Shown here in pieces: positions 19,053-19,457 of a DNA stretch of 45,593 bases. The DNA lies in IMG/VR virus record IMGVR_UViG_3300045988_022876; one strand, written 5' to 3'. The notes under the pieces were generated by a model. It worked only from the letters and a program-made list of their open reading frames with translations. It was not told where the DNA came from and ran no database searches. Each line of letters opens with the position of its first letter. Position 1 is the first letter of the stretch. Made by a program: the position numbers and the translations under genes. The DNA is from a virus.

Positions 19053-19062
19053 AATGTGAGTA

Positions 19063-19131
19063 CTACTTTAAGCACAAAAATGTAATAAAATAAAATAAAA
19101 TAGGGAATCGGGAAAAAGATTTTTTCTTCAT
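19063..19131 (-). CDS. Tiny hydrophobic peptide MKKKSFSRFPILFYFITFLCLK (type I toxin-like candidate)
   Basis: Minus-strand ATG sits 4 nt after the extended SD AAAGAAAGGAGGTG (19134-19147). 22 codons, then TAG. Confidence 0.3.
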   Translation of the reverse strand: MKKKSFSRFPILFYFITFLCLK

Positions 19132-19300
19132 TGCACCTCCTTTCTTTAAGAGACTCGCTAGTGGAAAACTGTATCAAGGAACGGTCGCACGTTCCGGCGA
19201 GTTTTGGCGTTATCAAATAACGCCATTTCCTCTCAATGTGATATTGGTATGATTGCTATTTTTCTTTTTGAACCTCCCCCTACGAGAAAAGAAAATGGCG

Positions 19301-19369
19301 AAGAATATAGCTTAACGGTAAAGCACCCGGACATCCGGGAGAATGGCGGTTCGACTCCGCCTATTCTTT
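19301..19369 (+). ncRNA. tRNA-like element with a truncated anticodon loop
   Basis: Acceptor aagaata/tattctt. D arm gctt-aacggta-aagc. T arm ggcgg-ttcgact-ccgcc. The anticodon position is cccgg-acat-ccggg (4-nt loop). Followed by a T-run. Confidence 0.55.
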
Positions 19370-19457
19370 TTTTGGACAGCCGAGTCCTACAAAACGGAAA
19401 ACCATTGGTGACTGGTTACGCACCTATAAATAACCTAATAATGGAAGGAGCTTTTGA

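Follow-up and report, generated by a model that had tools for sequence, protein, structure and literature searches.

A conserved tRNA-shaped element lacking a usable anticodon loop in the scaffold-gene leader of a Firmicutes phage

The spacer and its tRNA-shaped element

The DNA considered here is IMG/VR record IMGVR_UViG_3300045988_022876, and the window is this whole stretch of 45,593 nucleotides (nt), a temperate siphophage-like genome whose head genes all lie on the + strand. Our subject is a 405 nt gap (19053-19457), bordered at its 5′ end by an open reading frame (ORF) of 140 amino acids (aa) with no assigned function (18630-19052) and followed by the scaffold protein gene (19458-20075, + strand; Pfam Phage_scaffold PF06810/GP20, E 5.8e-26), and in particular a transfer RNA (tRNA)-shaped element at 19301-19369 on the + strand, found both by ARAGORN and by Infernal with the Rfam tRNA model. 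The element is co-oriented with the scaffold gene, ends 4 nt before the scaffold-leader RNA motif GP20-b (Rfam RF03003; 19374-19437, + strand; 40.2 bits, above its gathering score of 36.2) and lies 88 nt before the scaffold ATG at 19458. It is a genuine tRNA-shaped element that has no usable anticodon loop.

An earlier note on this DNA had described a cloverleaf here, and its parts are all present on the + strand: an acceptor of 7 bp (AAGAATA at 19301-07 with TATTCTT at 19362-68), a D arm whose loop carries GG (GCTT/AACGGTA/AAGC, stem 19310-13 and 19321-24), a 5 nt variable region (AGAAT, 19340-44) and a canonical T arm (GGCGG/TTCGACT/CCGCC, stem 19345-49 and 19357-61). The anticodon arm is a 5 bp stem (CCCGG at 19326-30, CCGGG at 19335-39) closed by 4 nt, ACAT (19331-34), as that note had also claimed, and on this the sequence, ARAGORN and Infernal agree. 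All 21 stem pairs are Watson-Crick, with neither a mismatch nor a G-U pair, and the nucleotides of the elbow and tertiary core (U8, A14, G18-G19, A15:U48 and the T loop UUCGACU) are kept, as judged from the sequence and its covariance-model alignment. The stretch GGTTCGACTCC at 19348-19358 fits the T-arm motif GGTTCRANYCC exactly, a T7 run occupies 19367-73 (+ strand), the discriminator is U and CCA is not encoded.

Runs of ARAGORN, and of Infernal against Rfam, had been suggested in the same note. ARAGORN reports a single gene in the window, a tRNA-??? with a 2 nt 'anticodon' at 19300-19370; Infernal finds GP20-b and scores the element at 57 bits with the tRNA family RF00005, whose gathering score is 29 (E 8.6e-10 with the window searched as a whole), its alignment placing four residues in the loop instead of seven. 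The element thus has the cloverleaf, D-loop GG, T loop and 5 nt variable region of RF00005, but departs from it in its 4 nt loop and in an acceptor stem of which six of the seven pairs are A-U and which opens with A1-U72. Every copy has 4 nt (ACAU, GCAU or UCAU, i.e. NCAU) in place of a 7 nt anticodon loop, without U33 or R37, and decoding is therefore impossible; aminoacylation seems unlikely given G3-C70, the short variable arm and the missing anticodon. The 70 nt segment folds with z = -3.5 relative to shuffled sequences, none of the 200 shuffles folding as well.

Selection was tested on 11 distinct sequences of the clade, drawn from Coprococcus comes prophages and gut metagenomes, over a span of 1455 nt. 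Three of the 69 columns of the tRNA-like element vary, comprising two unpaired substitutions (A/G at 19325, which is nt 26, and A/G/U at 19331, the first loop nt) and one change in U-run length, as compared with 47 of 248 columns (19%) in the upstream spacer (Fisher p = 0.0013) and 76 of 205 third-codon positions (37%) in the scaffold gene (p = 1e-8). This low variability relative to the spacer and the third-codon positions argues that the element is under purifying selection in its 4 nt loop form. Gapped DNA pattern searches that left the loop free within 3-8 nt, or the anticodon arm free altogether, made in IMG/VR, metagenomes and GTDB genomes, returned only 4 nt loop copies (on seven IMG/VR contigs, five metagenome contigs and one genome), all belonging to one narrow clade, and contigs whose scaffold proteins are down to 93% identical (in IMG/VR, metagenome, genome and Logan/ENA data) supplied more copies, again all with the 4 nt loop. 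No 7 nt loop version of the element was found in the IMG/VR, metagenome or genome collections. The earlier note had allowed for a decayed tRNA gene; in the sense of neutral decay this is not supported, the element being far more conserved than its flanks and no 7 nt loop version having been found.

Scaffold-gene leaders of related phages

Loci of related phages (identified here by L numbers) were anchored on the scaffold protein and the conserved GP20-b tail, and the upstream regions of about 17 lineages were compared. A recurrent order is seen, running from a Cys_rich_KTR gene or a member of the 140-aa ORF family, through a terminator in many lineages, a box of the CCUCCUUUC type and a first position (slot 1), to an optional hairpin with a second position (slot 2), a linker of 4-6 nt that is usually U-rich, GP20-b or another leader, and finally the Shine-Dalgarno (SD) sequence and the scaffold gene. 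All related loci examined have their tRNA-shaped module on the same strand as the scaffold gene, and the trailers of these modules, mostly U-rich, never encode CCA.

Slot 1 is occupied by the RNA motif RAGATH-21 in L008, L010, L023, L044, L102, L107 and L110, and by a mini-tRNA of 52-57 nt in L041, L043, L051, L052, L103-L105, L108 and L109. Slot 2 holds tRNA-Val(UAC) in L008, tRNA-Ile(UAU) in L107 and L110 (the L107 copy sharing the body of the L008 tRNA-Val), tRNA-Asn(GUU) in L041, L108 and L109, tRNA-Met(CAU) in the L023 group and L032, tRNA-Thr(UGU) in L030, an aberrant tRNA-like with a 7 bp stem and an 8 nt loop in L043, and the 4 nt loop element in the clade of the window, where it is the only T-loop-bearing module. 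Where GP20-b is present, the module that adjoins it ends 4-9 nt upstream, mostly 4-6 nt, and is a tRNA-Val(UAC), a tRNA-Ile(UAU), a tRNA-Asn(GUU), the aberrant tRNA-like, a RAGATH-21 or a mini-tRNA; other scaffold leaders have tRNA-Met(CAU), tRNA-Thr(UGU) or tRNA-Ile(UAU) upstream. The position is fixed, and other tRNA-shaped modules interchange with the element at it. INPHARED gave four weak, unannotated matches, with MT837318 carrying RAGATH-21 and a tRNA-Ile upstream of its scaffold gene, and no self-cleaving ribozyme was found in the slot among about 45 loci scanned with Rfam.

Two observations concern the anticodon arm in slot 2. The tRNA bodies of L008 (2836-2910) and L107 (1332-1404) are near-identical and have the anticodons UAC (Val) and UAU (Ile), in the loops CUUACAU and CUUAUAC respectively, so that the anticodon seems free to change in the slot. 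The aberrant tRNA-like of L043 (11661-11739, - strand), directly before GP20-b, has a 7 bp anticodon arm with one mismatch, an 8 nt loop and a weak D stem; it is called tRNA-??? by ARAGORN, scores 37 bits with Rfam and is independent of the window element.

The canonical tRNAs upstream of the scaffold gene in relatives suggest one alternative, namely that the element is a disabled and functionless tRNA gene whose lineage lost 3 nt of its loop. A single deletion of CUU from the Val-type loop CUUACAU of L008 would yield exactly ACAU, and L043 provides a second aberrant anticodon arm. We nevertheless regard this as very unlikely, given that variation in the element is about 10-fold below that of third-codon positions and about 5-fold below that of the neighbouring spacer, with substitutions at unpaired sites only, that its 21 stem pairs are flawless, and that no intact version occurs in any collection searched. 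Its acceptor, with six of seven pairs A-U, and its body are moreover unlike those of every slot tRNA seen, so that more than one loop deletion would separate them. The earlier note had held that a normal 7 nt loop tRNA here in relatives would speak for simple decay; such tRNAs do lie upstream of the scaffold gene, but with five anticodons and unrelated bodies.

The mini-tRNA follows a CCUCC box and lacks an anticodon arm; its parts are an 8 bp helix resembling an acceptor, a D-like hairpin that carries GG, and a T arm of canonical form. Copies lie at L103 1360-1414, L105 414-468, L052 9539-9595, L108 1218-1269, L109 1219-1270 and, on the - strand, L041 3828-3882, L051 6507-6559 and L043 11841-11893. 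With six sequences as its input, a covariance model (R1) found nine loci at E <= 2e-13; pairing in the acceptor helix stands at 96.9%, compensatory changes affect six of its eight pairs and no shuffle equals the observed covariation score. By this covariation the mini-tRNA is evidently a real structured family, which argues that tRNA shape without decoding is selected in the scaffold leader. The T arm GGCGGTTCGACTCCGCC of the window element (19345-19361) is identical to that of the L109 mini-tRNA (1245-1261) at 17 of 17 nt; the remainder of the two differs.

RAGATH-21 is an orphan motif (RF03097), with copies at L008 2763-2832, L102 1329-1408, L044 1402-1488, L107 1107-1175 and L110 ~945-1030. 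Like the mini-tRNA it stands in the scaffold leader after the CCUCC box, and 4-6 nt before GP20-b where no tRNA intervenes, and each of the two has an acceptor-like closing helix and a 7 nt T-type loop next to its 3′ strand; in RAGATH-21 this loop, UGCAAUU, lies beside the closing helix and resembles a T loop. Once its variable hairpin is removed, the RAGATH-21 core matches the mini-tRNA core at 27-30 of 38-42 nt (~70%; z 4-6), and two copies give weak full-length matches to the mini-tRNA model. Because the cores are alike and these matches exist, RAGATH-21 may be a relative of the tRNA-derived mini-tRNA. The window element differs from both in keeping a full anticodon stem, and it matches neither model.

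Three further features of the related loci were noted. A sequence, GAGCCAGA(C/T)GCCAGAC(G/A)CAGAGCC, is conserved after small Cys_rich_KTR (PF14205) genes, its 3′ end forming the 5′ arm of a terminator hairpin; it lies at L008 ~2682-2705, L010 ~2627-2650, L023 ~2505-2530, L102 1238-1262, L103 1278-1300, L105 312-336 and L107 1020-1045, and is not in the window. One GP20-b group that has no tRNA-shaped module (L037, L040, L042, L046, L047, L053-L059, L072, L074, L075, L077 and L083) carries three AGTCATAG repeats and then a hairpin, CACGCAGG..CCTGGGTG, with a U run ~10 nt before GP20-b; this arrangement might represent operators with an attenuator behind them. In a related phage the space separating the minor capsid gene from the Cys_rich_KTR gene contains a further orphan motif, skipping-rope RNA (RF02924; L103 707-803 and L104 1-94).

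A terminator-like alternative fold and the rest of the leader

The variable region AGAAU (19340-44) is complementary to AUUCU in the 3′ acceptor strand (19363-67), and the T arm can thereby be extended to a 10 bp hairpin, AGAAUGGCGG with CCGCC(U)AUUCU, followed by U6 (19340-19373, + strand), which has the shape of an intrinsic terminator, a G+C-rich hairpin and then a U run. The extended hairpin alone is computed at -12.4 kcal/mol, and for the whole element the alternative fold (-24.7 kcal/mol) and the cloverleaf (-24.4 kcal/mol) are isoenergetic. The U run is 6 to 8 long in the clade, and a terminator scan flags the T arm (19345-19361) with its U-run tail, which bears out the look of a terminator that the earlier note had seen in the T arm plus U run. 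On these models the element appears bistable, its extended T hairpin and U run looking like an intrinsic terminator.

The element might on this evidence be mainly a terminator or attenuator, in which UAUUCU pairs with AGAAU and the 10 bp hairpin and U6-8 stop the RNA before the scaffold leader, the tRNA likeness being a matter of ancestry; scaffold and capsid would then be expressed only by antiterminated or read-through late transcription. We take this proposal seriously but judge both its parts unlikely. The scan result, the energy of the extended hairpin and its isoenergetic standing, the part of the U tract contributed by the A/U-rich acceptor, the plain hairpin and U run found at the same place in about 30 other GP20-b loci, and the U7 after the tRNA of L107 are all in keeping with it. 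A terminator, however, needs none of the D arm, the anticodon stem and the elbow nucleotides, all of which are invariant, and most modules of relatives have no usable U tract (AUUCC in L008, AAUCU in L103, GCUCC in L041). Efficient termination would also require an antitermination system, since no sigma-70-type promoter was detected in a scan between the element and the scaffold gene; a TATAAAT in the GP20-b tail has, on manual checking, no -35 hexamer at workable spacing. Termination is compatible with the reading of the element as a processing signal, to which we return below.

The element is one module of a larger structured leader, an option that the earlier note had raised without mentioning GP20-b, the two CCUCC boxes, the hairpin at 19259-19296 or the AGAAU/AUUCU pairing. 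The first box, CACCUCCUUUCUUU (19134-19147, + strand), is anti-SD-like and complementary to the SD sequence of the scaffold gene, GGAAGGAG (19443-50, + strand), with which it pairs in the minimum-energy fold of the whole spacer; 12 of its nt match the 3′ tail of Firmicutes 16S rRNA. On that model box 1 might mask the scaffold SD. Exact copies of the box occur three times on the + strand of the window (19136, 37199 and 38122), the latter two among minus-strand ORFs. A box of the CCUCCUUUC type lies 2-8 nt 5′ of the first tRNA-shaped module in L008, L010, L044, L051, L052 and L102-L110 as well as in the window.

The slot-1 element of the window (19151-19204, + strand) is a three-way junction in minimum-energy folds, made up of an 8 bp closing stem, AGACUCGC/GCGAGUUU, an AGU-GGAAA-ACU hairpin and a GGAACG-GUCGCA-CGUUCC hairpin. 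The closing helix at 19153-58/19197-202 extends to 8 bp as 19151-58/19197-204, and the inner hairpin is at 19178-83/19190-95; the helices of the nested structure placed by the earlier note at 19153-19203 are thus predicted, its end being one base too far (19202). Two of the 55 columns of 19151-19205 vary in the clade. This element shares layout and position with RAGATH-21 and the mini-tRNA (a stem that closes two hairpins, the first small and with GG, and a single spacer nt ahead of the 3′ strand), and its similarity to RAGATH-21 is weak (z 0.6-4.1); there was no match to RF03097 at E <= 1 in 18900-19600, and none to model R1.

Further downstream on the + strand is a perfect 8 bp hairpin, GGCGUUAU-CAA-AUAACGCC (19206-19224), which had been noted previously, is present in the predicted folds and is scored as terminator-like by the terminator scan. 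Its stem, GGCGTTA(T)/(A)TAACGCC, is invariant in the window and in L001, L005, L099 and L101, with loops CAA versus TTG and GCTAC versus GTAGC, and the loop of the palindrome appears to be inverted among near-identical phages. An A-U hairpin, UUUUCUUUU/GAAAAGAAAA (19259-19296, + strand), is also predicted and exposes in its loop the second CCUCC box, CCUCCCCC (19273-80, + strand); L108 and L109 have an analogous box plus hairpin ahead of their tRNA-Asn. GP20-b in the window opens with the hairpin GGAC-AGCCGA-GUCC, and the gene downstream of it is the PF06810 gene.

We found no credible ORF filling the gap, in agreement with the earlier note. Two mechanical ORFs, of 85 aa (19204-19461, + strand) and 65 aa (19019-19216, - strand), are ruled out as genes: close relatives carry non-triplet indels within each, and the 85-aa ORF has no match in Pfam. 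A minus-strand micro-ORF with its ATG at 19131 (MKKKSFFPIPYF..., hydrophobic), for which box 1 supplies a perfect ribosome-binding site, was considered as a type I toxin and rejected because 5 nt and 1 nt indels break its frame in near-identical relatives and related phages keep the box without any start codon. The element was also considered as a phage attP overlapping a tRNA gene, which is excluded: the phage recombinase is of the serine type and is encoded 12 kb away. The element is, besides, a complete cloverleaf within the head-gene module.

Elsewhere in the window lie genes for the large terminase (10928-12253), minor capsid protein 2 (13764-14996), the major capsid protein (20119-21294) and the large serine recombinase (5747-7147), together with an endolysin and a helix-turn-helix repressor on the minus strand. 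Coprococcus comes MSK.16.63 (contig NZ_JAAIMM010000013) harbours a near-identical prophage, and the nearest scaffold proteins carry C. comes annotation. When window ~20300-23000 is compared with L001-L007, which are ~90% identical across the spacer and the scaffold gene, alignment is largely lost from the middle of the major capsid gene on, suggesting a mosaic boundary.

A possible processing signal in the scaffold leader

What selection keeps in the scaffold leader is, to judge from the comparisons above, the acceptor/T-arm stack and the elbow, the anticodon apparently not being required. RNase P uses the elbow as the point from which it measures the acceptor/T-arm stack, and is independent of the anticodon (PMC4919913), and the RNase Z of Firmicutes cuts directly after the discriminator of pre-tRNAs that have no CCA (PMC8549757). 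Because the features kept are these, and the modules are CCA-less, we tentatively favour the interpretation, to which we give somewhat less than an even chance, that the element, rather than decoding, marks the RNA for processing by RNase P and RNase Z much as the t-elements of plant mitochondria do, and so sets the 5′ end of the scaffold/capsid mRNA.

The head-gene transcript of the + strand would include the spacer, and the cloverleaf in it would adopt an L shape, in which host RNase P would read the acceptor/T-arm stack and elbow and cut at 19301; RNase Z would cut past the discriminator at 19369/19370, ahead of a CCA-less, U-rich trailer. The downstream mRNA so freed would start 3-5 nt before the first GP20-b hairpin, and cleavage would separate the upstream anti-SD box from the ribosome-binding site of the scaffold gene. 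The anticodon loop would have no role in processing, and its reduction to 4 nt could therefore be tolerated. In this clade the alternative 10 bp hairpin and U run may halt or attenuate transcripts that are neither processed nor antiterminated. A 5′-proximal hairpin is known to shield Firmicute mRNAs from 5′-end-dependent decay.

Several points weigh against the proposed processing function. Transcription of the spacer, cleavage by RNase P and RNase Z, and effects on mRNA stability or translation are deduced here from the compared architecture of the leaders and from what is established of enzyme specificity. The isolated 70-mer has a minimum-energy fold without the acceptor stem, and the nearest-neighbour model ranks the cloverleaf, with its very A-U-rich acceptor, level with the competing hairpin. 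The clade is too uniform for a covariation signal within the element. The slot could simply be a favoured site for tRNA genes, several of its occupants being apparently good decoding tRNAs. About 30 GP20-b loci have a hairpin and U run in place of a tRNA-shaped module, so that a GP20-b leader can do without a tRNA shape.

Strong conservation would, finally, equally suit an RNA acting in trans. As a tRNA mimic, the released and perhaps CCA-added L-shaped RNA would titrate a host factor that recognizes tRNA bodies or acceptors, such as a tRNA-targeting toxin, a defence nuclease or a modification enzyme, and there is documentation of phage tRNAs that counter defences aimed at tRNA (PMC10264068). 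The L-shape determinants and the sequence as a whole are strongly conserved, and in the loop the first nt has three alleles (A/G/U) and the rest is fixed, as such a role would allow; but known anticodon nucleases need a loop that is absent here, no tRNA-related enzyme and no defence or anti-defence gene is found among the 20 window proteins scanned, and the short, conserved distance to GP20-b, like the replacement of the element by mini-tRNA or RAGATH-21 at the same position, favours a role in cis. We give this alternative, and each of the targets proposed for it, only a slim chance. A decoy for tRNA-targeting nucleases had been among the options of the earlier note; in its anticodon-targeting sense this is contradicted by a 4 nt loop that offers no target, and the fixed position by the scaffold leader again points to cis.

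A wider proposition, which we consider doubtful, is that such modules act as interchangeable 'punctuation' in Lachnospiraceae phages, that RAGATH-21 is tRNA-derived, and that in the clade of the window the module is also a bistable switch, possibly coupled to unmasking of the ribosome-binding site. Host RNase P and RNase Z would then process the scaffold/capsid mRNA at a constant spacing from GP20-b, using as modules true tRNAs, anticodon-truncated tRNA-likes, anticodon-arm-less mini-tRNAs or RAGATH-21. As a switch, the module would fold into a cloverleaf that is cleaved or into a terminator hairpin, and the upstream anti-SD box might be released.

The closest precedent for the window element appears to be the plant-mitochondrial t-element. 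These elements are non-canonical tRNA-like cloverleaves with a conserved T arm (GGTTCRANYCC) that RNase P and RNase Z cleave; they directly adjoin mRNAs on the 5′ or 3′ side, element ends being mRNA ends, and canonical tRNAs do likewise at other genes of the same genome (PMC1920247). The window element is similarly a non-canonical tRNA-like that fits the T-arm motif and lies at an mRNA boundary on the same strand, but it belongs to a Firmicute bacteriophage and not to an organelle, its cleavage is predicted from sequence, and it is followed by a GP20-b leader, preceded by anti-SD-like boxes and capable of a terminator-like alternative fold. In mascRNA at the 3′ end of MALAT1 and in the tRNA-mRNA co-transcripts of the E. 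coli tufB operon, RNase P and RNase Z or RNase E create the neighbouring RNA ends. There too a tRNA or tRNA-like lies within a longer transcript; the organisms and enzyme sets are different, and homology is not implied.

GP20-b has been described upstream of GP20/scaffold genes (PMC10690425), and the literature on it that we found presents a candidate cis-regulator only, with no mention of tRNA-shaped modules immediately 5′. An incomplete literature search found no paper dealing with RAGATH-21 or with processing elements of tRNA-like form in the leaders of phages, and no description of tRNA-shaped modules recurring in phage scaffold leaders, of the mini-tRNA or of kinship between RAGATH-21 and tRNA. 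GP20-b and RAGATH-21 are already catalogued as orphan motifs, and tRNA-??? calls are routine.

For annotation, these findings indicate that tRNA-??? or pseudo-tRNA calls in phages are not necessarily junk, and where a phage has a single tRNA gene ahead of its capsid genes, that gene may serve by its shape as much as by decoding. The tRNA-shaped modules could also be compact processing signals for engineering Firmicutes phages. If the proposed function is correct, RAGATH-21 would be a tRNA-derived substrate of RNase P and RNase Z, and GP20-b the 5′-terminal leader made by the cut; tRNA 'punctuation' in the mitochondrial style would be used also by tailed phages of gut Firmicutes, in which it would determine where the most strongly expressed of their structural mRNAs begins.

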